From: Caldimicrobium thiodismutans | GTDB taxonomy: Bacteria > Desulfobacterota > Thermodesulfobacteria > Thermodesulfobacteriales > Thermodesulfobacteriaceae | Direction: 5' to 3' | Assembly: GCF_001548275.1 (NCBI RefSeq) | Contig: NZ_AP014945.1 | Span: 1,680,001 to 1,712,000 of the forward strand | Length of the DNA stretch: 32,000 nucleotides | Part shown: positions 6,055 through 26,375 of the stretch, piece after piece | Layout of the letters: each line of letters starts with the position of its first letter | How positions within the stretch are numbered: position 1 is the first letter of the stretch | The notes under the pieces: generated by a model | Seen by the model: the letters and a program-made list of their open reading frames with translations, nothing else | Told to the model about the DNA's origin: nothing | The model's database searches: none | Program-made: the position numbers and the translations under genes

Positions 6055-6558
6055 TTGGCAAAGGCAGGAGAAGAGTTTATTGAAAAAATTATTCAAATTA
6101 GTAGGGTTACAAAGGTTACCAAGGGAGGAAAAAAGCTAAGGTTTGCAGCCTTAGTTGTGGTTGGTGATGGAAAGGGAAAAGTTGGTTTTGGTCTTGGAAA
6201 GGCCCCTGAGGTCCCTGATGCTATAAGAAAGGCTATTGATAAGGCTAAAAAGACGATGATTCAGATACCTATAGTTAAGGGAACTATTCCCCATAGTATA
6301 AAAGTAAAGTTTGGAGCTTCTTCTCTTTTACTTAAGCCAGCTCCTGCGGGAACAGGCGTTATTGCAGGGGGAACTGTGCGTGCAGTTATGGATGCTGCAG
6401 GAATTACAGATATAGTTACTAAAGCCATTGGTAGCACAAACCCTCATAATCTCATAAAGGCTACTTTTAGAGCCCTTTCTCAGATTCAGGGCTTAGACTA
6501 TGTGGCTCGTAAAAGAGGAAAAGAAGTTGATGAAATTCTTGCGAGGGTGAGGGCATGA
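6055..6558 (+). CDS. rpsE: 30S ribosomal protein S5
   Basis: TTG start behind a GGAGGTGA RBS (6043-6050). Contains [36 protein letters not shown]. Confidence 0.96.
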
Positions 6559-16443: not shown

Positions 16444-16495
16444 AAAGGAAAGCTCAGCCTCCTTTTTAAGACCTGATTTTTCATGGTAAAAATTC

Positions 16496-16511
16496 AGGCA
16501 CAAAATTTGAA
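16496..16511 (+). promoter_or_regulatory. Sigma54-like -24/-12 element (imperfect)
   Basis: AGGCACAAAATTTGAA compared with consensus TGGCAC-N5-TTGCW. The GG and TTG spacing is correct, but the -12 element reads GA rather than GC. It lies about 40 nt upstream of ATG 16552. Confidence 0.3.
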
Positions 16512-16551
16512 AGATATAAATAAAAATAAAATCCAAGGAGGAGGTGCTAAG

Positions 16552-16998
16552 ATGAGGAGGAAGGTTTTGAAGGGATTAGCAGTGGTAGGTTTAATTGGTG
16601 GGCTTGCTTTTACTGCTTTTGCCGATGCCCCTCAGGAGCAAAATCCTAACCCAGGATATCAGATGGGGCCAATGATGATGGGACCTGGATTTGGTGGACC
16701 AGGGAAAGGTTGTAGATGCGGATACACTATGCAAGCTAATGTTGATCCTGCTAAACTTCAAAAGTTCTATGAGGAGACAAAGGTTTTAAGACAGAAGATG
16801 TGGGAAACAAGAGAGGCCCTAAGAATGTCTTATCTCTCTACCAATCCCGATTGGAAGGCTATTTCTGAAAAAAGAGCAGAGCTTGCAAAGCTTATGACGG
16901 AACTTCAGGCAAAGGCCTCTCAATCAGGGGCTCCTTATGTATATGGAATGGGGATGGGAAGAGGCTTTTGTGGAATGGGCTATGGCCCAAGAATTTAA
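16552..16998 (+). CDS. Periplasmic ZraP/CpxP/Spy-family protein with Gly/Met/Cys-rich termini
   Basis: ATG 16552 follows an AAGGAGGAGG RBS; the track start at 16483 has none. Signal peptide MRRKVLKGLAVVGLIGGLAFTAFA. Helical core KLQKFYEETKVLRQKMWETREALRMSYLSTNPDWKAISEKRAELAKLM. The G/M-rich tail YGMGMGRGFCGMGYGPRI recalls the E. coli ZraP tail. Confidence 0.75.
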   Translation: MRRKVLKGLAVVGLIGGLAFTAFADAPQEQNPNPGYQMGPMMMGPGFGGPGKGCRCGYTMQANVDPAKLQKFYEETKVLRQKMWETREALRMSYLSTNPDWKAISEKRAELAKLMTELQAKASQSGAPYVYGMGMGRGFCGMGYGPRI

Positions 16999-17020
16999 AA
17001 ATAACTTAGGGGGTGATAAA

Positions 17021-17359
17021 ATGAAAGGATTAAAAATGTTATTAACAGGCCTTGCAGTTTTAACTTTTTTGGGAACATCTGAGGTTATGGCTAAAAGAGG
17101 AGGTCCCTATTTACCACCGGCAGATCCAGTTAAAGTAAAGGAATATTGCACTGAGATCCAGCCCCTTTATCAAAAAGAGTTTCAATTGAGAAATGAGATT
17201 CGTAGCATGATCTGGTCAGGAAATCCTAATTGGTCTGAGGTTGAAAGTAAAGAAATTGAGGCAGCAAAACTTCGGGTTGAGATGATGAAAAAGGCTCAGG
17301 AAAAGGGCTTGCCTCTCCCAAGAGGAATGAAACACATTAGAAGATATTGTGGTTGGTAA
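17021..17359 (+). CDS. Second periplasmic ZraP/CpxP/Spy-family paralog
   Basis: ATG 17021 follows a GGGGGTG RBS. Signal peptide MKGLKMLLTGLAVLTFLGTSEVMA. The core YQKEFQLRNEIRSMIWSGNPNWSEVESKEIEAAKLRVEMMK parallels the upstream gene (S-x-NP-[DN]-W). Confidence 0.7.
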   Translation: MKGLKMLLTGLAVLTFLGTSEVMAKRGGPYLPPADPVKVKEYCTEIQPLYQKEFQLRNEIRSMIWSGNPNWSEVESKEIEAAKLRVEMMKKAQEKGLPLPRGMKHIRRYCGW

Positions 17360-17388
17360 AAAAACAAACAAAAAAAGAGGTGTGAGCT

Positions 17389-17643
17389 ATGTTTAGAGGA
17401 GGTTTTTACAAAAAGTTTTTGGCATTGAGTTTGGTGGGTGGTTTTGTGGTTTCAAGCTGGACTTTTGTTCATGCCAGAGGCCCGATGGGAGGAGCTGGAC
17501 AAGGAAGGGGGCCAATGCATTATCAAAACCAGCAAAATGTTCAGACTCAGCAACAAAATAAAACTATGCAGCAGGAACGCAAGAGACAGAGAATTCATGC
17601 ACCTGGCACCGGACTTTCATCAAATACTACAAGTGGGACCTAA
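17389..17643 (+). CDS. Small secreted Gln/Asn-rich protein, unknown function
   Basis: GAGGTG RBS. Signal peptide ending VHA. The mature part begins RGPMGGAGQGRGPMHYQNQQNVQTQQQNK, which shares the GPM/G-rich motif with the first gene of the cluster. Confidence 0.6.
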   Translation: MFRGGFYKKFLALSLVGGFVVSSWTFVHARGPMGGAGQGRGPMHYQNQQNVQTQQQNKTMQQERKRQRIHAPGTGLSSNTTSGT

Positions 17644-17653
17644 AGATTTAGTA

Positions 17654-17680
17654 AGGGGGCTATAATGCCCCCTACTTTCA
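17654..17680 (+). terminator. GC-rich hairpin, possible partial terminator or attenuator inside the cluster
   Basis: AGGGGGC-TATAAT-GCCCCCT (7-bp stem, 17654-17673) followed by ACTTTCA. The U-tract is weak. Confidence 0.4.
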
Positions 17681-17693
17681 ATGGGAGGATAGT

Positions 17694-18149
17694 ATGCTAA
17701 AAAAGAGCTCTTTAAAGTGCTTATTTTTAATATTGACTTTATTAATAACCACAAAGGGATTTACCCTTGACAAACCTTTACCTGAATTTAAAGATGTAAA
17801 ACTTGAGACTCAGAAATACATTGATTATTTTTACAGTCTTAAGCTTTCACCCACTGAGCAAAAGACTTTGGAGCAGGCTTTAAAACCTATTCCTGCCCCT
17901 TGCTGTGCTGATAACTCTGCTTTGACCTGCTGATGCACTTGTAATTTATACAGGTCCTGGACGGGCCTTGCCAAGTGGATGATTAAAAAGGGATATTCAG
18001 CTGAAGAAGTGAGGGCTGGAGTTCTTAAATGGTTTAGTTTTGTAAATCCCACTGGATTTTCAGGAAAAGATTGTTATATAGGAAATTGTGAAAAGCCCTT
18101 TAATAAAGACGGATGCGGTGGAATGGATCCCAAAAGATTGAGGTGGTAA
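17694..18149 (+). CDS. Secreted Cys-rich protein with in-frame TGA at 17931-17933 (candidate selenocysteine); a conventional reading stops at 17933
   Basis: GGGAGG RBS and signal peptide MLKKSSLKCLFLILTLLITTKG. The sequence PCCADNSALTC-TGA-CTC continues in frame for 71 codons to TAA 18147-18149, 2 nt before the next start codon. Confidence 0.5.
17936..17977 (+). promoter_or_regulatory. Candidate bacterial SECIS-like stem-loop directly 3' of the in-frame UGA
   Basis: Lower stem CACUUG/CAAGUG (17936-17941 with 17972-17977). Upper stem AGGUCC/GGGCCU (17952-17957 with 17963-17968, including one G-U pair). Apical loop UGGAC starts 24 nt after the UGA. Confidence 0.35.
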
Positions 18150-18151
18150 AA

Positions 18152-18604
18152 ATGTTTAAGATTTTTAAATGGGGGGGTATTTTCCCCCTGTTTTTATCTA
18201 TAATGATATTATTTTTCTCAATTCCTGAGGTAGCTTTTTCTCAAGAAGATTTCCCTGAAATGGATTTAGAAAATTACGATCCCAATACAGAGATTGTATT
18301 AAAAGGAGAGATTAGAGAGATCATTATTCCTAAAAAGCCTAAAAAGAAAAAGGGGATGGTAAGGCTTCTTGTAGCTAAAGGCGATAAAATTTATACAGTT
18401 TTTCTTTCTCCATGGTGGTTTTATTTTAAATTAAATCCTAACCTCAAGATAGGAGACAGGGTTGAAATTAAAGGAGCAAAAATTTATACACGAAAACATG
18501 GCCTTGCTTTAGTGGTAAAGACTTTAAAAAATCTTTCTACAGGGGAAGAGCTAATCCTTAGAGATACCACCTGTAAACCCTGTTGGAGCGGAGGGAGAAA
18601 TTAA
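18152..18604 (+). CDS. Secreted OB-fold-like protein (MamS/BOF-type periplasmic domain), unknown function
   Basis: ATG 18152 follows a GAGGTGG RBS; the track start at 18113 overlaps the upstream gene. Signal peptide MFKIFKWGGIFPLFLSIMILFFSIPEVAFS. The pattern VLKGEI...YTVFLSPWWFY...IGDRVEIKG...LRDTTCKPCWSG is typical of these small periplasmic beta-barrel proteins. Confidence 0.6.
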   Translation: MFKIFKWGGIFPLFLSIMILFFSIPEVAFSQEDFPEMDLENYDPNTEIVLKGEIREIIIPKKPKKKKGMVRLLVAKGDKIYTVFLSPWWFYFKLNPNLKIGDRVEIKGAKIYTRKHGLALVVKTLKNLSTGEELILRDTTCKPCWSGGRN

Positions 18605-18617
18605 AATAAAGGCAATT

Positions 18618-19934
18618 TTAATCATTCTCAAGATTATAGAGCTTAAGTTTATAGTAAAGGGTTCTAAGGGCTATTCCCAGTTTTTTAGCAGCCTCCTTTT
18701 TATTACCTCCTGTTTCCTTAAGAGCCTTTAAAATTGCCTCCCTTTCAAGTGCTTCAAGAGATTTAACCTCATTTGGCTTAGAAGATAAATTCTCTTTTTC
18801 CTCTTCAACCTCAATTTCAAGATAAGGGCCTCTACAAAGTAAAAGAGCCCGTTCAATGAGATTTTCAAGCTCTCTTATGTTTCCGGGAAAAGAATAATTT
18901 AAGAGTCTTTTTTTAGATTCTTCACTTAAAGGTCTGGGTTCTTTACCAAGAGACTCAGCCTTTTTTTGAATGAGATATTCAGCAATTTTAAGAAGTTCTT
19001 TTTTTCTCTCTCTCAAAGGTGGAAGAGTAAAGGCAACTACATTGATTCTGTAATAGAGGTCTTCCCTGAATTTTCCTTCTTCCACAAGTTTTTTAAGATC
19101 TCTATTTGTGGCAACTACAAAGCGGGCATCAGTTTTAAGGGTTTCAAGCCCTCCAAGTCTTTCAAAGCTTTTATCCTGAAGCACTCTCAAGAATTTAGCC
19201 TGTATGGGAAGGGCCATTTCTGAGATTTCATCAAGAAAAAGAGTTCCTCCTCTTGCTAATTCAAGTTTTCCGGGTTTGGTTTTTATAGCCCCGGTAAAAG
19301 CGCCTTTTTCATAACCGAAAAGTTCAGCCTCAACAAGATTTTCAGGAAGGCTTGCGCAATTAATTTCCACAAAGGGCCCTTTTCTTCCACTTAAAAAGTG
19401 TATAGCCTTTGCCATAGCGGATTTTCCAGTTCCTGTCTCACCAAGGAGAAGGACTGTGGCACTGGTTGGTGCTATTTCAAGAATTTTTTCATAAAGATCT
19501 TCAAGACCTGCAAAAAGGATTTCAAAGGGAGGAACTTCAAGGGCTTTTTCTTCAGGCCTTTTTTTGTGCTTCAAAATTTTTTTAACTTTTTCAATCAGCT
19601 CTTCAGGTGAGGAAAGAGGTTTAGTTAAATAATCAATGGCTCCCTTTTTTAAGGCAGATACTGCAGATGGTATGCTTCCAAAGGCTGTGATTACTATAAA
19701 TTCAGAATCTGGTAATAATTTTTTTGCTTTTTCAAGAAAGGAAATTCCATCCATACCCGGAAGTTTCAAATCAGTTATTACAAGCTCTGGCTTAAGCTCC
19801 GGAAGTTTCAAAAGGGCACTCTCTGCATCTTTAAAGCTTTTGATCTCAAATCCCTCCTCTTCAAGAATGGTCTCAAGAAAGTTCAAAAAAGAGGGATCAT
19901 CTTCCACTATAAGGATCTGGGGATTTTTAGGCAT
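18618..19934 (-). CDS. Sigma54-dependent response regulator (NtrC/ZraR family: REC + AAA+ + Fis-type HTH)
   Basis: REC domain (ILIVEDDP...VITDLKLPGMDG). Walker A GETGTGKSAMAKAI. Sigma54-contact loop GAFTGA. C-terminal HTH NKKEAAKKLGIALRTLYYKLK. Confidence 0.93.
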   Translation of the reverse strand: MPKNPQILIVEDDPSFLNFLETILEEEGFEIKSFKDAESALLKLPELKPELVITDLKLPGMDGISFLEKAKKLLPDSEFIVITAFGSIPSAVSALKKGAIDYLTKPLSSPEELIEKVKKILKHKKRPEEKALEVPPFEILFAGLEDLYEKILEIAPTSATVLLLGETGTGKSAMAKAIHFLSGRKGPFVEINCASLPENLVEAELFGYEKGAFTGAIKTKPGKLELARGGTLFLDEISEMALPIQAKFLRVLQDKSFERLGGLETLKTDARFVVATNRDLKKLVEEGKFREDLYYRINVVAFTLPPLRERKKELLKIAEYLIQKKAESLGKEPRPLSEESKKRLLNYSFPGNIRELENLIERALLLCRGPYLEIEVEEEKENLSSKPNEVKSLEALEREAILKALKETGGNKKEAAKKLGIALRTLYYKLKLYNLEND

Positions 19935-21187
19935 GCCCTTGTTCCCTTTCCTTTTTCTGATTCAATTTTTAAGTCAAGTCCCAGTTCCTCACAGAATTTT
20001 TTCACAATAGCAAGGCCAAGGCCTGTTCCCCTTGATTTGGTGGTAAAAAAGGGTTCAAAGATGTAAGGTAAAATCTTTTCATCAATTCCCAGGCCTTCAT
20101 CTCTTATTTTAATAATATAATACTCTCCCTTTTCTTTCAAACCTACAAAAATTTTTTCTTTTCCAGCCTCAAAACTTGCATGCAGGGCATTTTCCATTAA
20201 GTTGAGAAATATACTTCTCAATTTTTCAGGATCACTTTTGGTCTTAAAATTTTCTCCCTCAGGGGTTATTTCAATTTGGACCTCTTCATAGAGAAATTTA
20301 AGGGACTCCACCACCTCTTCAAGAAGTTCTTTCAAATCTATTATTTTGAGTTCAGGTTCCCTTGAAAAGGTAAAATGGGAAAGCTCCTTTAAAAGATTTT
20401 CAATTCTTAGAGTCTCTTTGAGAATAATAGTTAAGGGTTTTTCAGCCGGTTTTTCTACACACTTTCTTTGCAGATACTGGGCAAAGCCCTTTATGCTTGC
20501 TAAGGGATTTTTGATCTCATGAAGAAGAACTCTTGTAATAAATTGCCATCTTTCAAGCTCCTCCATTCGGGAAAGTGACCTTTCAATTCTTGAAAGAATA
20601 AAAAAAGCCCCTAAACCTCCTGTAAAAAGAAGAAGGCTTAAAGAAAAGTCAATATAAAAGTGTCTTCTTGCAAAGTTAAGACTTTCCATTACTGGCCCCA
20701 CATGAAGGGCAATCCTGAGTATCAGGGGATTTTGTTTATTGATTACATAATTTTCATATAGATAAACAGTTTCTCCTGTCTTGAGAGTAAAAAAACTTGT
20801 CTGTCTTTTCTCTTCAAGAAGAAAACTTTTTTCAACTTTTTGACCTATTAAATCAGGATTGGAGTGAAGCACTATAGTTTTATTGGTATCATAGAGAGTA
20901 ATAAAGGCAACCCCCTCCCATCTTTCATTAAGGAGTAGTTCTGAAAAAAAGTCCTTCCTTTCTTTTAATAGATTTATGTCAAAGGTTTTAAAAAGGCTTT
21001 GTAAGACTACTTCAAGGCTTAAAGCTTGTAATTTCAGATTGGTATCCAGAGTTTTTTCTGTATTTTTGTAACTTAAAAAAGCAGACATAAGTAAAAGAAA
21101 GCCTGCTAAAAAGGAAGAAATTAAAGCTATAAAACCTGGTTTGAGAAGTTTTTTAAGAGGTTTTTCCAATCTGAGAGATAAGTTCAT
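19907..21187 (-). CDS. Sensor histidine kinase with two TM helices and a periplasmic domain (ZraS/AtoS-like)
   Basis: H-box LLHEIKNPLASIKGF. N box LMENALHA. G boxes DEGLGI and GTGLGLAIVKK. The track opens at TTG 21202 and the first ATG is 21187. Either start lies inside the 3' end of the upstream platform gene. The 3' end overlaps the RR start by 28 nt. Confidence 0.88.
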   Translation of the reverse strand: MNLSLRLEKPLKKLLKPGFIALISSFLAGFLLLMSAFLSYKNTEKTLDTNLKLQALSLEVVLQSLFKTFDINLLKERKDFFSELLLNERWEGVAFITLYDTNKTIVLHSNPDLIGQKVEKSFLLEEKRQTSFFTLKTGETVYLYENYVINKQNPLILRIALHVGPVMESLNFARRHFYIDFSLSLLLFTGGLGAFFILSRIERSLSRMEELERWQFITRVLLHEIKNPLASIKGFAQYLQRKCVEKPAEKPLTIILKETLRIENLLKELSHFTFSREPELKIIDLKELLEEVVESLKFLYEEVQIEITPEGENFKTKSDPEKLRSIFLNLMENALHASFEAGKEKIFVGLKEKGEYYIIKIRDEGLGIDEKILPYIFEPFFTTKSRGTGLGLAIVKKFCEELGLDLKIESEKGKGTRACLKIPRSL

Positions 21188-22358
21188 AAATAGGTCCAAC
21201 AAGAGCTATGATAATAATAAGGAAGATAATACCTGCAATGGCAAGGACAACAGGCTCAAGAATTTTGGTAAGGGTATCTACAATATTCTGAACCTCCTGA
21301 TAATAAAAGTTAGCAAGCATTTTCATCTGTTCTTCAAGTCTTCCTGTTGCTTCTCCAACTGAAATCATTCTTATATCAAGGGGTCTAAAAATTTTTTCTT
21401 TTTTAAGAGCGCTTGCAATATTTTCACCTGCTAAAATAGACTCTTCAATATTTTTAACAATTTTTTTGTGATACAGCCTGTGAAAGGATTCATACATAAG
21501 TTTTAAAAGTCTCAGAAGATCAATTCCCGCTGAAAGTAACAGAGCAAAGTGTTCAAAAAAGAAGGCGAGAAAATTAAGTCTTCTAACTCTTCCAAAAATG
21601 GGGATTTTAAGTAAAAGCCTTTCAAAGGGAATCTGTGTTTTAGGATGGCGATATAAGAAAAGAATTGTTATTATGGATATGATAAGAAAAAGGGGAAGGT
21701 AAAATTTTATGGCTAAAAAGAAATTTACTACTTTCATCAAAATGATAGTAGGAAGGGGAAGTTTAACTCCCATTTCTTTAAAGGTCCCAAGAAGTTTGGG
21801 AAGCACAAAAAAGATCCAGAAGGCAAGGGCTCCTGACATGGCAAATAATACAAAAGCTGGATAAATTAGGGCCCTTTTGGTCTGGGAAATTATTTCATCA
21901 ACGCGATAAAGATGTTTTGAGGCTTCCTCTAAGGTTCTATCAAGGGTTCCTGATTCTTCTCCTATTTGAATGAGAGATATAACCACTGGAGGGAAAAGCT
22001 TGGTTTTTTCAACAGCACTTCTAAAGGTTTCTCCTCTTGTAATAGCAATCCTTATTTTATTGATTTCTCTTTTGAGTTTTGGATTTTTAGTTTCTTTTTC
22101 AAGGTCTTCAAGGGAAGTAATCAGGGGAACACCACTTCTTAATAAAAAGGCAAGATGATGTAAGAACTCAGCAAGTTCCTTTCTTTTAACTCGCCCGGAG
22201 AAAAACTTTGGAAAGATAGTTCTTTTTACCGAGTAGTTAACCAGAGTCAGCCCTTCTCTTTGAAGGGCATAGTAGAGCTCTTCTGGGCTCTGGTATTCGC
22301 CTTCTCCTTTAGTAAGGGTGCCCTCTCTTGTAAGGGCTGTGTATGTGAAAAGGGGCAT
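21153..22358 (-). CDS. Type II secretion / type IV pilus inner-membrane platform protein (GspF/PilC/MshG family)
   Basis: 401 aa made of two repeated T2SSF-type halves (LSRMLRSG-like LAFLLRSGVPLITSL and LALLLSAGIDLLRLL). Three TM segments. Confidence 0.9.
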   Translation of the reverse strand: MPLFTYTALTREGTLTKGEGEYQSPEELYYALQREGLTLVNYSVKRTIFPKFFSGRVKRKELAEFLHHLAFLLRSGVPLITSLEDLEKETKNPKLKREINKIRIAITRGETFRSAVEKTKLFPPVVISLIQIGEESGTLDRTLEEASKHLYRVDEIISQTKRALIYPAFVLFAMSGALAFWIFFVLPKLLGTFKEMGVKLPLPTIILMKVVNFFLAIKFYLPLFLIISIITILFLYRHPKTQIPFERLLLKIPIFGRVRRLNFLAFFFEHFALLLSAGIDLLRLLKLMYESFHRLYHKKIVKNIEESILAGENIASALKKEKIFRPLDIRMISVGEATGRLEEQMKMLANFYYQEVQNIVDTLTKILEPVVLAIAGIIFLIIIIALVGPIYELISQIGKTS

Positions 22359-24005: not shown

Positions 24006-24842
24006 CTACTTACACATTTCTTCTAAAGTTTTAACTTTATCCTGTAAGCCCGGAGGAAATGTCTTGAGACGAAGTTCTCTGCAGGCTTTTTCCCTTTCTC
24101 CCTTTTTTAAAAGAACCATAAGGTAATTGAGCTCATAAAAGGGGTCATGTTTTAATTTAAGTGCTTTTTCAAAGGCAATTTTTGCCCCATCAAAATTTCC
24201 AGTTAAGTAATAAAGTCCCCCAAGATTATTGAGTGCATCAGGGTCTGTCCTGTGTTTAAGATATTCTTCATAAAATTTTATAGCAGACATATAATTCCCC
24301 TTTTTTCTCTCCTCCTCGGCATTAAAAAGCAGGTTTTCAAGTAGCCCTTTTTCTTTAAGAATAGGTGCCCCTTGAGGAGTAAGAGTTTCTATTTTTTCCT
24401 CAAGTTTTTCAGGTTCCCTTTTTTTCTTTAACATAGAGAGAGTCTCTTTGTCCCTTTTTATTTTATCTTTATTTTTTGAAAGGGTTTTATTTCCAGGGGT
24501 TGAATCTTTTGGAAGAGCAGATTTTTTAACCTCCTTGTCAGTAACTTCTAAACTCCCTTTAGGTTGGGTAGCATTATTTTGTGTAGGGGGAATCTCTCCT
24601 TGAGGTGATCTTTTGACTTCATATACATATTCTGGAGGATTCTGAAAAGGCTTTTTATCTTTAGCCTTTAATAAACTAAACATTTTTACCAGATAGAATC
24701 CCCCCAAAAAAGAACCTGAAAATAAAATCGCAAAGAGAATCAAAAAAAAGAATCTGCGTTTTGAAACTTTTTCTTTTTCTTTAAAAGGAGAGGGCTTCTT
24801 TTCTTTTTTTATCTCTCTTAAAAATTCAGCAAGTTTTCCCAT
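24006..24842 (-). CDS. Membrane-anchored TPR-repeat protein (MshN-like position)
   Basis: N-terminal TM helix (FFFLILFAILFSGSFLGGFYLV), a K/E/P-rich linker, then TPR-like repeats (GNYMSAIKFYEEYLKHRTDPDALNNLGGLYYLTGNFDGAKIAFEKALKL). Confidence 0.7.
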   Translation of the reverse strand: MGKLAEFLREIKKEKKPSPFKEKEKVSKRRFFFLILFAILFSGSFLGGFYLVKMFSLLKAKDKKPFQNPPEYVYEVKRSPQGEIPPTQNNATQPKGSLEVTDKEVKKSALPKDSTPGNKTLSKNKDKIKRDKETLSMLKKKREPEKLEEKIETLTPQGAPILKEKGLLENLLFNAEEERKKGNYMSAIKFYEEYLKHRTDPDALNNLGGLYYLTGNFDGAKIAFEKALKLKHDPFYELNYLMVLLKKGEREKACRELRLKTFPPGLQDKVKTLEEMCK

Positions 24843-24845
24843 AGC

Positions 24846-26375
24846 TCAGTCTAAAAGAATTCTTATGAGGATTACAAGCTCTGCTTTTTTTCCTTCATGA
24901 ATATTACTTTTGAATAATTCAGAAAGTAAAGGGATGGCTACCTTCCTTTCAGTTGTTTTATCCCGATCAAGAATTAGCCCACCAATAACAATCAAATCAT
25001 TGGGGCGAGCCTTAACAATAGAGGTCATCTCCCTCAAATTTACCCTTGGGAGGGTTATAAAGTAATTAGCTCCAAAACGAACTTCCTTTAAATCTACAAT
25101 ATCACTTTTTATGGGAACAATGTGAAGAAAAATCTGATCCTCTTCTGCAATATAAGGTGTTATCCCGAGAAGTATCCCATCGAATACAGAAGAGGGGCTA
25201 ACGGATGGATTTGTTGCATTACCTTCATATTTAATTTCTCTTATATAGGCTTGAGAGGTTCCCACACTTATTAAGGCAGGCTGAGAGTGAAGAACTCTTA
25301 TCTTTGGGTTTGAGATTACTTTAAGTTCTCCATATTCCTTCAGAAGATTTAAAATCAAATTCACATTGGGCTCACCACTTATGGTCAGGGCAAAGGAGAA
25401 TGGAGGTGGAACTCCCGTTTGATCATTTTTTTTAAGATCAAGGGTATTAAAGGAAACCCTGTTATTCCCCATAAGATAACCTGTTATTTCAAACCAATCC
25501 ACCCCAAGGTTATGCCCTTTACTAAGCTCAATTTCAATAATCTGAGCGGAAAGAAGAATCTGCCTTCCATATTTCTTTTTAAATTCTGAAACAAGCCTTT
25601 CAACAGCCCTTATTCTGCTTGGTTTAGCCTTCACATAAAGTATCCCTGTGAGCCTGTTCAAACTATAACTCCCCTCTTTAGAAAGAAGGGTAACTAAACT
25701 AACTTCAAGGGCTTTATAAAGGTCAAGACTTTCTTTTGAAAGCTCGGCATTAATAGAATATTCACCCTTAAGAGGTGAAGGTGCAATGGTTCCACCCACT
25801 CCACCCCCAATATTTCCAAGAACATCCCCTCCCATAGAAGTTCTACTCTCTTTTATCACAGGAAGAAAACCAAGATTTATAATCTTTTCTGCAAAGGGTT
25901 CAACATAAAGAATACCTCTGTCAACTCTAAAATTTATATCCAGAAGTTCACATACCTTTTGTAGTATATCCTGAACAGGTTGATTCTTCATCTGCAAGGT
26001 TATTCTTTCCTTTTCAGGTGGTATTTCCTTTTTAACCTCAGGATCTATAACAAGGCTTAATCCTGTTTGATAAGCAAGGAAAAAAAGAATACTTTCAAAG
26101 TGTTCTTGATAAAATGCAACGGTTAAAGGTTTTTGTAAAGGGGAAAGTTCTTTAAATAGGGGCTTAAGAGCAGGTTTTTCCTCAGTTCCTGGCTTTACCT
26201 GAGGAGTGGTAGCATTTTCAAGAACCTGTCTGTATTGATTATAGGCCTTTTCTGTTTCAGGGGAAGGAACCTTTCCACCACAGGAAACAAGAAAACTAAT
26301 AATCAGAAGAAAGAGTAAAAACTCCTCCAACCTCAAGTTTAACCCTTTTGCCCCTGGGAAGTAAAAGTTCCACAT
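24846..26375 (-). CDS. Outer-membrane secretin, lipoprotein type (PilQ/GspD/MshL family)
   Basis: C-terminal secretin domain (NPKIRVLHSQPALISVGT...GILLGITPYI...IVIGGLI...VAIPLLSELF...ELVILIRI). Lipobox FLVSC. The track ATG 26375 overlaps the upstream gene by 80 nt; in-frame TTG codons at 26336 and 26330 are alternative starts. Confidence 0.88.
   Translation of the reverse strand: MWNFYFPGAKGLNLRLEEFLLFLLIISFLVSCGGKVPSPETEKAYNQYRQVLENATTPQVKPGTEEKPALKPLFKELSPLQKPLTVAFYQEHFESILFFLAYQTGLSLVIDPEVKKEIPPEKERITLQMKNQPVQDILQKVCELLDINFRVDRGILYVEPFAEKIINLGFLPVIKESRTSMGGDVLGNIGGGVGGTIAPSPLKGEYSINAELSKESLDLYKALEVSLVTLLSKEGSYSLNRLTGILYVKAKPSRIRAVERLVSEFKKKYGRQILLSAQIIEIELSKGHNLGVDWFEITGYLMGNNRVSFNTLDLKKNDQTGVPPPFSFALTISGEPNVNLILNLLKEYGELKVISNPKIRVLHSQPALISVGTSQAYIREIKYEGNATNPSVSPSSVFDGILLGITPYIAEEDQIFLHIVPIKSDIVDLKEVRFGANYFITLPRVNLREMTSIVKARPNDLIVIGGLILDRDKTTERKVAIPLLSELFKSNIHEGKKAELVILIRILLD

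Follow-up and report, generated by a model that had tools for sequence, protein, structure and literature searches.

Several bacterial selenoprotein families are small, Cys-rich proteins in which selenocysteine (Sec) stands directly beside a Cys. Those closest to the gene described here, listed in Table 1 of PMC13188914, are OS_HP4 (CYCXC/PCYCGC, PF13798, UxxC), MbdU (metal-binding double selenoprotein, CU), SaoC (Cys-Cys-COOH selenoprotein, CU) and the CopZ-like proteins with a CU motif. The present gene lies in a 32,000-nucleotide stretch of the Caldimicrobium thiodismutans genome (NZ_AP014945.1, positions 1,680,001 to 1,712,000), referred to below as the window and numbered from its first letter. 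An in-frame TGA at window positions 17931-33 is, on sequence evidence, very probably decoded as Sec, which would make the product an exported Cys-rich selenoprotein of 151 residues. Like the families above, the gene has a UGA where homologues have Cys, TGA-bearing orthologues and a stem-loop just downstream, and it encodes a small Cys-rich protein, with the putative Sec directly beside a Cys, in a context with a heavy-metal flavour. It differs from them in its motif, C-U-C-x-C, which places Sec between two Cys and matches none in that table, and no sequence kinship with them was found (PF13798 and the NCBIfam selenoprotein models, E <= 1).

Insertion of Sec in bacteria is directed by a Sec insertion sequence (SECIS), which in the Escherichia coli fdhF type is a stem-loop in the coding sequence directly 3' of the UGA (Zhang and Gladyshev, via PMC13188914). 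The published model of the bacterial SECIS (bSECIS) has a loop of 3-9 nt with a G in its first two positions and a stem of 4-16 bp, lies 16-37 nt from the UGA and has a minimum free energy (MFE) of -7.5 kcal/mol or lower (PMC13188914). The hairpin reported here is placed as in fdhF; unlike the fdhF element it is of unrelated sequence, has no evident bulged U and is a SECIS by prediction.

The gene is situated between secreted Metal_resist proteins and a sigma54-dependent regulator and kinase, as in ZraPSR and Spy/CpxP modules, and ZraR and ZraS are among the sub-threshold matches of the window's regulator and kinase. The selenoprotein, however, has no counterpart in those modules. Csp copper-storage proteins are Cys-lined helical bundles, some of which are Tat-exported. 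The window protein is similarly small, mostly helical, Cys-rich and extracytoplasmic, and many of its Bryobacterales homologues have Tat signals; unlike Csp, it has no match in the PDB by fold or by sequence, and its cysteines are in loops (PCC, CUCxC, GCGGMD) and not along helices.

An open reading frame across the UGA

The open reading frame (ORF) that starts at ATG 17694 has 79 codons and ends at the TGA with the tail ...PAPCCADNSALTC* (last residues ALTC). Past the TGA the same frame runs for 71 further sense codons without a stop, to TAA 18147-49. The next gene starts at ATG 18152, and its GAGGTGG (18140-46) lies within the final codons of the extended frame. Between the TGA and the TAA there is a single in-frame ATG, at 17979, which has no spaced ribosome-binding site. 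The sequence-only reading, which proposed the gene as a candidate selenoprotein, had given all of these coordinates correctly. The N-terminus has a basic n-region followed by a hydrophobic core, and the AlphaFold2 model has a low predicted local distance difference test score (pLDDT) at residues 1-20, the region of the signal peptide. Neither the 79-aa ORF nor the 150-aa ORF downstream of the gene has an exact-sequence record in the protein look-ups.

The TGA column in homologues

A homologue search of about 5.8 billion proteins gave 19 matches, of which 18 are full-length (100-215 residues) and span the TGA position. All 18 have Cys in the column aligned with the TGA. Conservation continues over residues 81-151, with W113, C127, C132 and a nearly invariant GCGGMD among the conserved positions. 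The 19th match, P0014, is a 96-residue fragment that terminates in ...ALTC. It comes from the metagenome-assembled genome (MAG) GCA_017880035.1 (locus L001), which shares approximately 99% identity with the window, the TGA included. Gene callers cut the gene at the UGA, as this fragment illustrates, so that every occurrence of the TGA form is misannotated.

With GCGGMD (picked by the search tool) as the family search pattern, 160 loci were obtained from 185,579 species-representative genomes and from JGI metagenomes. Of the 143 loci translated for a first motif count, 117 have TGC, 17 have TGT and 9 have TGA as the middle codon of the triad C-C-C. This is the Cys/Sec pairing, an in-frame UGA against Cys in homologues, with 134 Cys codons to set against nine TGA. 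The columns of the first Cys cluster are invariant or almost so both in the homologue alignment and in these 143 loci. Looser motif searches and two look-ups added L005, L026, L085, L167 and L168; with these, and with the window counted, there are 14 TGA sequences. The sequence-only reading had asked whether homologues have Cys at codon 80 and stay conserved beyond it, and they do. The family as a whole comprises 215 clusters at 50% identity among 1.84 billion representatives, with Cys forms in Acidobacteriota, Binatia and Hydrothermarchaeota.

Two further TGA-like cases were found. P0151 (L165:690-759), which ends in ...ILTC, was considered as an independent TGA form and rejected as an Illumina-adapter artefact: its stop is false because contig L165 ends in adapter sequence (TAG ATCGGAAGAG). 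L166:639-1100 (JGI 3300038469, Ga0436466_0045741; GC content 0.64) is an Acidobacteria-like homologue in which the corresponding codon is likewise TGA (SAYTC*CVCNLSRTVWGL...). The frame of this homologue is open and conserved up to GCGGMQ, and it has no convincing SECIS-like hairpin; candidate explanations for its TGA are a sequencing error, a pseudogene and a Sec form of independent origin.

TGA-bearing relatives and selection downstream

The 13 TGA relatives (L001-L006, L026, L085, L086, L088, L092, L167 and L168) are MAGs of Thermodesulfobacteriaceae and Caldimicrobium together with unassigned contigs from metagenomes or read assemblies. Apart from the near-identical L001, their protein identity to the window is 53-79%: L002 (Thermodesulfobacteriaceae UBA6232) has 79%, the Caldimicrobium MAGs L003-L006 and L026 have 53-66%, and among the unassigned contigs, which also include L167 and L168, L085 has 64% and L086, L088 and L092 have 53-58%. 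In a neighbour-joining tree of 133 distinct cores the 12 TGA forms constitute a single clade with no Cys form inside it. The switch to TGA therefore happened once and was kept.

The downstream frame is open in every TGA relative whose contig reaches the end of the gene. In comparisons between TGA forms over this region, the proportion of nonsynonymous differences (pN) is 0.03-0.29 and that of synonymous differences (pS) 0.36-0.90; with the closest pair excluded, pN is 0.17-0.29 and pS 0.56-0.90, which is near saturation. The ratio of the corresponding rates (dN/dS) is 0.06-0.29 wherever computable. The codons 3' of the TGA are thus, judged from the substitution pattern, under purifying selection and hence translated, which bears out the conservation at the amino-acid level that had been looked for in the 71 codons. 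The 14 codons directly 3' of the TGA (CxCNLxRSWxGLAK) rank among the best conserved of all, and they lie upstream of the sole possible restart codon.

In the nearly identical L001 (L001:9900-10560 compared with window 17350-18200) there is a 254-nt in-frame deletion in MAG GCA_017880035.1, by which the small secreted ORF that lies upstream (window 17389..) becomes fused with the mature portion of the selenoprotein. Missing from the same MAG, too, is the region with the first of the Spy-like genes and the K+ channel gene. These differences could represent strain variation or misassembly.

A hairpin specific to the TGA forms

RNAfold of 17931-17985 gives a two-tier hairpin of -15.1 kcal/mol, with both of the stems drawn in the sequence-only reading and a loop, UGGAC, that begins 24 nt past the UGA. 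The apical core of the window alone has -8.5 kcal/mol. The two tiers fared differently in relatives. The lower stem is particular to the window and its closest relative and is largely absent from the relatives' consensus fold. The apical hairpin recurs at an equivalent position in each of the 12 TGA forms examined, where the 23-nt core has between -7.1 and -11.4 kcal/mol. Ten of the 12 have all six pairs, AGRUCC/GGGYCU, around a UGGAN loop, and in the remaining two (L026 and L085) the register is shifted by one base to give GGUCCU-GGAU-RGGACU. In the L086 group and four other TGA forms the stem is lengthened by one or two additional pairs. By contrast, at the homologous columns a six-pair hairpin occurs in none of the 119 distinct Cys forms (mode 2-3 pairs). 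With its UGGAC loop, 6-bp stem and 24-nt spacing, the window hairpin agrees with the published bSECIS model in every parameter, so that the SECIS-type loop and spacing first noted from the sequence are borne out and are, in addition, specific to TGA forms.

Compensatory changes were seen at two pairs, G:C to or from A:U at the third and C:G to or from G:C at the added seventh. For the Ser encoded within the stem, 10 of 10 sequences use TCC; where four to six codons are available for another invariant residue, three to five of them are in use.

We propose that this hairpin, inside the coding sequence, acts as a bacterial SECIS and, while the ribosome pauses at the UGA, would recruit SelB with its Sec-tRNA(Sec). 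The resulting protein would contain C-U-C-x-C within a cluster of nine Cys/Sec positions (C70, C71, C79, U80, C81, C83, C127, C132 and C141). On a much more tentative reading of the function, Sec would stand in for the middle Cys of a triad with a ligand or redox role, and residue 80 would be the key ligand or nucleophile; residue 80 is likely to be the functional one because it is the central residue of the C-C-C triad that is replaced. Both SelB-dependent insertion and the function of the protein are inferred.

Weighing selenocysteine against other decodings

A number of observations weigh against Sec decoding. The fold energy of the window hairpin is unexceptional (z = -1.4; 15 of 200 shuffles fold equally well), and for this reason its significance comes from the comparison with relatives only. 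The covariation is thin, being confined to two pairs, and 25 of 500 control shuffles score as high. Part of the hairpin conservation could be due to the encoded R-S-W-x-G-L peptide. There is no Rfam match, either for the window at the gathering threshold or in a permissive scan of 17880-18040, which at E <= 10 gave chance-level matches to unrelated families only; this says little because the library has no general model for bacterial SECIS elements. As to the Sec machinery, none of selA, selB and selD was found in the 32-kb window or in the collected loci, ARAGORN found no tRNA-Sec in the window or in 14 loci (and no tRNA gene at all in the window), and tblastn with an E. coli SelD query found no selD in the window or the collected loci.

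The literature on the lineage is supportive. Thermodesulfobacterium sp. OPB45, T. geofontis, T. thermophilum and T. hveragerdense are listed as Sec-utilising, with 3-5 known selenoproteins each (Peng 2016, Table S2), and the Thermodesulfobacteria isolate genomes with selC* tRNAs have a complete selA/B/C/D set (Mukai et al., PMC5389517). Within the window, TGA ends 5 of 36 long ORFs, including 6055..6558 in the ribosomal-protein cluster, and is therefore not reassigned genome-wide. Elsewhere in the window, long ORFs share a frame across a TGA at one place only, 24006-26375 on the reverse strand. This was considered as a read-through and rejected: a 509-aa secretin ORF ends there in ...ILLD* at an ordinary stop, and a 278-aa tetratricopeptide-repeat protein ORF starts 4 nt later.

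The alternative that survives best, though it is improbable, is that the UGA is recoded by means of the same hairpin with Cys, or a mixture of Sec and Cys, inserted, for example by a tRNA(Sec)-like selC* tRNA(Cys). Genes for such tRNAs are reported in Thermodesulfobacteria isolate genomes, and a deltaproteobacterial selC* tRNA with a UCA anticodon read UGA as Cys in E. coli (PMC5389517); the homologues outside the TGA clade, moreover, all have Cys at the site. Against this, the opal (UCA) anticodon is tied to cysS* genomes and was described in a subgroup of the Desulfobacterales, and every selC*-carrying genome has the full Sec apparatus (PMC5389517). If Cys were intended, TGC or TGT, each a single base away from TGA, would serve without a hairpin, yet both the TGA and the hairpin have been kept across a clade with near-saturated synonymous sites. 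We rate this decoding low because the opal variant is tied to cysS* and because a Cys codon would make the conserved hairpin unnecessary.

It is considerably less probable that the TGA is a true stop, with a 79-residue protein followed by 218 nt of decaying remnant or non-coding spacer. Automatic gene callers do stop here, as in P0014, and the available sequence (window and loci) holds no Sec machinery. The frame beyond the TGA, however, is open in TGA relatives and under strong purifying selection at near-saturated synonymous sites, and it retains the family-invariant C127, C132 and GCGGMD.

Slightly less probable again are two genes, one for the 79-residue N-terminal protein and one for a 56-residue protein starting at ATG 17979. 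That ATG is common to several relatives, in a WM(I/V)K motif, and one such C-terminal fragment has been predicted by a gene caller (P0148). The 15 codons from the TGA to ATG 17979 are nevertheless among the most conserved of the protein. A start codon is lacking at that point in L086, L088 and L092, and Thr-Leu stands in its place in L085; no ribosome-binding site is suitably spaced, and the Cys homologues are all single polypeptides.

A sequencing error or recent nonsense mutation in a pseudogene, for which a single TGC to TGA change would suffice and which finds a parallel in the hairpin-less TGA of the unrelated high-GC contig L166, is scarcely credible: 13 further sequences, each assembled independently, have TGA at precisely this codon across 53-79% protein identity, and they are monophyletic, with a matching hairpin in each TGA relative examined. 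Downstream conservation, selection and the missing restart codon therefore effectively exclude that the gene really stops at the TGA with junk behind it, that a nonsense mutation has recently struck it, or that it is split in two.

Sec decoding, to which we return, is favoured by the Cys/Sec pairing, the TGA orthologues, the selection downstream and the TGA-specific hairpin, and the original proposal of a candidate selenoprotein is upheld on these grounds.

Table 1 Features of the candidate selenoprotein gene and its surroundings (window positions).
Feature	Position	Strand	Remarks
Candidate selenoprotein coding sequence	17694..18149	+	151 codons including the putative Sec codon 80, plus TAA; frame open across the TGA
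Shine-Dalgarno GGGAGG	17683..17688	+	5 nt upstream of ATG 17694; from sequence
Predicted Sec-type signal peptide, about residues 1-23 (MLKKSSLKCLFLILTLLITTKGF)	17694..17762	+	cleavage site approximate
First Cys cluster, PCC-x7-C-U-C-x-C (C70, C71, C79, U80, C81, C83)	17901..17942	+	(near-)invariant columns
UGA, probable Sec codon 80	17931..17933	+	aligned with TGC/TGT of Cys forms
Lower stem 17936-41/17972-77 around the apical hairpin	17936..17977	+	in the MFE structure of the window; not conserved
Predicted SECIS apical stem-loop	17952..17968	+	stem 17952-57/17963-68 (AGGUCC/GGGCCU), loop UGGAC 17958-62
Second Cys region, C127, C132 and G-C141-G-G-M-D	18072..18128	+	motif 18111-18128; near-invariant columns
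Two tandem secreted Metal_resist (ZraP/Spy/CpxP-like) ORFs	16483..17359	+	PF13801; upstream of the selenoprotein gene, syntenic in relatives
Possible sigma54 -24/-12 element, TGGCAC-N5-TTTCA	17604..17619	+	75 nt before the start codon; weak lead
Secreted OB-fold protein (MamS/MamX-like)	18152..18604	+	starts 2 nt past the selenoprotein stop
Sigma54-dependent response regulator (18618-19934) and histidine kinase (19907-21202)	18618..21202	-	convergent with the cluster; NCBIfam

The protein family

The read-through protein has no Pfam match at E <= 1, and none of the 19 homologues has a precomputed Pfam domain. A loose resemblance to PCYCGC-type proteins (PF13798), suggested from the motif in the sequence-only reading, is consequently not supported, since no Pfam model matches. 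In NCBIfam, selenoprotein models (NF04xxxx) included, the window protein, P0009 and P0019 have no match at E <= 1, and P0002 has a spurious hopene-cyclase match only. None of the 119 prokaryotic selenoprotein families in the review of May 2026 matches, and there is no C-U-C motif among them (PMC13188914). The family is thus a well-supported bacterial selenoprotein family that the 2026 inventory lacks.

The AlphaFold2 model is confident (pLDDT 84; predicted template-modelling score 0.78) and mostly helical, and both Cys clusters are in loops. At the N-terminus, homologues have Sec-type, lipobox/lipoprotein or Tat-type signals at the same position, and the family is therefore extracytoplasmic. 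Tat signals are found in many Cys forms of the Bryobacterales (L007, L009, L011, L018, L033, L053 and others), for example RRDFILGL, whereas the Sec forms and the other lineages have Sec-type or lipoprotein signals. The Tat signals suggest that some members of the family are exported already folded or loaded with a cofactor.

If the decoding proposed is correct, the gene adds a selenoprotein family to the 119 of the 2026 inventory and draws attention to an uncharacterised family of exported Cys-rich proteins. The Cys homologues from Acidobacteriota, Binatia and Hydrothermarchaeota provide expressible material for the study of metal binding or redox activity, and the 17-nt hairpin would be a compact, simple SECIS from a thermophile lineage, suited to reporters.

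Gene neighbourhood and possible role

The rest of the window contains a ribosomal-protein cluster, miaB, a K+ channel gene, an envelope cluster and type II/IV secretion genes. The sequence-only reading had placed the gene with periplasmic ZraP/Spy-like proteins beside a sigma54 two-component system, and the Pfam and NCBIfam matches confirm this context. On the Spy-like ORFs the PF13801 match is weak in the window (E = 6e-4) and clear in L085, which is syntenic (E = 3e-8). The window, L002 and L085 have in common the order miaB, Spy/ZraP-like (Metal_resist), selenoprotein; in L092 it is miaB, an unassigned 105-aa ORF, selenoprotein.

On the downstream side, PF26390 is on record for the L001 orthologue of the OB-fold neighbour, and the window copy has a weak OB-fold match. 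The OB-fold gene adjoins the Sec gene in L002 and L026 and also recurs beside the Cys form in L066. The regulator has NtrC/AtoC/ZraR-type and the kinase AtoS/ZraS-type NCBIfam matches, all of them under the equivalog cut-offs, and the pair is kept beside the family gene in L002, L026 and the Cys-form locus L066. The sigma54-like site upstream of the gene has one mismatch to the consensus and is partly conserved in L002; the number of such matches in the window is not above chance.

Other loci have other neighbours. In the Caldimicrobium MAGs L003 (1-3420) and L004 (2216-6509) the order is NifS, NifU(IscU), selenoprotein and an SO_0444/SaoE-like permease, with MoeB/ThiF-rhodanese on the opposite strand, a neighbourhood of sulfur/selenium trafficking unlike that of the window. 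A transporter of the ACR3/SBF type stands beside the family gene in L006 and L026, an ArsR regulator in L008, and CusB/CzcA resistance-nodulation-division (RND) pumps, a YHS protein and a P-type ATPase in L082.

The gene context hints weakly at envelope metal handling. A possible, tentative reading of the evidence is that the protein is an extracytoplasmic soft-metal- or metalloid-binding protein, or a thiol/selenol redox protein, of an envelope metal-stress module made up of the Spy/ZraP-like proteins, the OB-fold protein and the sigma54 two-component system. On this same tentative footing, the window protein may be the founding selenoprotein of an unrecognised exported family with nine Cys positions, in which the cluster PCC...C-U-C-x-C...C-x4-C...GCGGMD would form a soft-metal-, metalloid- or chalcogen-binding or redox centre serving sigma54-controlled envelope metal stress in thermophilic sulfur bacteria, the Sec form having evolved once with its own SECIS. 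The wider neighbourhood counts against such a role: the 131 immediate neighbours from 75 non-redundant loci include only six RND pumps, three YHS proteins and two P-type ATPases, metal-efflux genes being no more than modestly present, and neither clustering of the neighbour ORFs nor a Pfam scan of the 131 revealed a universally conserved partner gene.

Two smaller features flank the gene. Between the Spy-like genes and the selenoprotein gene there is a small secreted Gln/Asn-rich ORF (window 17389-17643, + strand, 84 aa), which has no family match and is conserved in L002. Beyond the gene, a strong terminator-like hairpin, GGGGGGGTATTTTCCCCC followed by a T-run (18167-18193, + strand), starts 18 nt past the selenoprotein stop, inside the first codons of the next ORF. 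It has a weaker counterpart at the same place in L002 and none in L026, and it may partly terminate or attenuate expression from the selenoprotein gene into the next gene.

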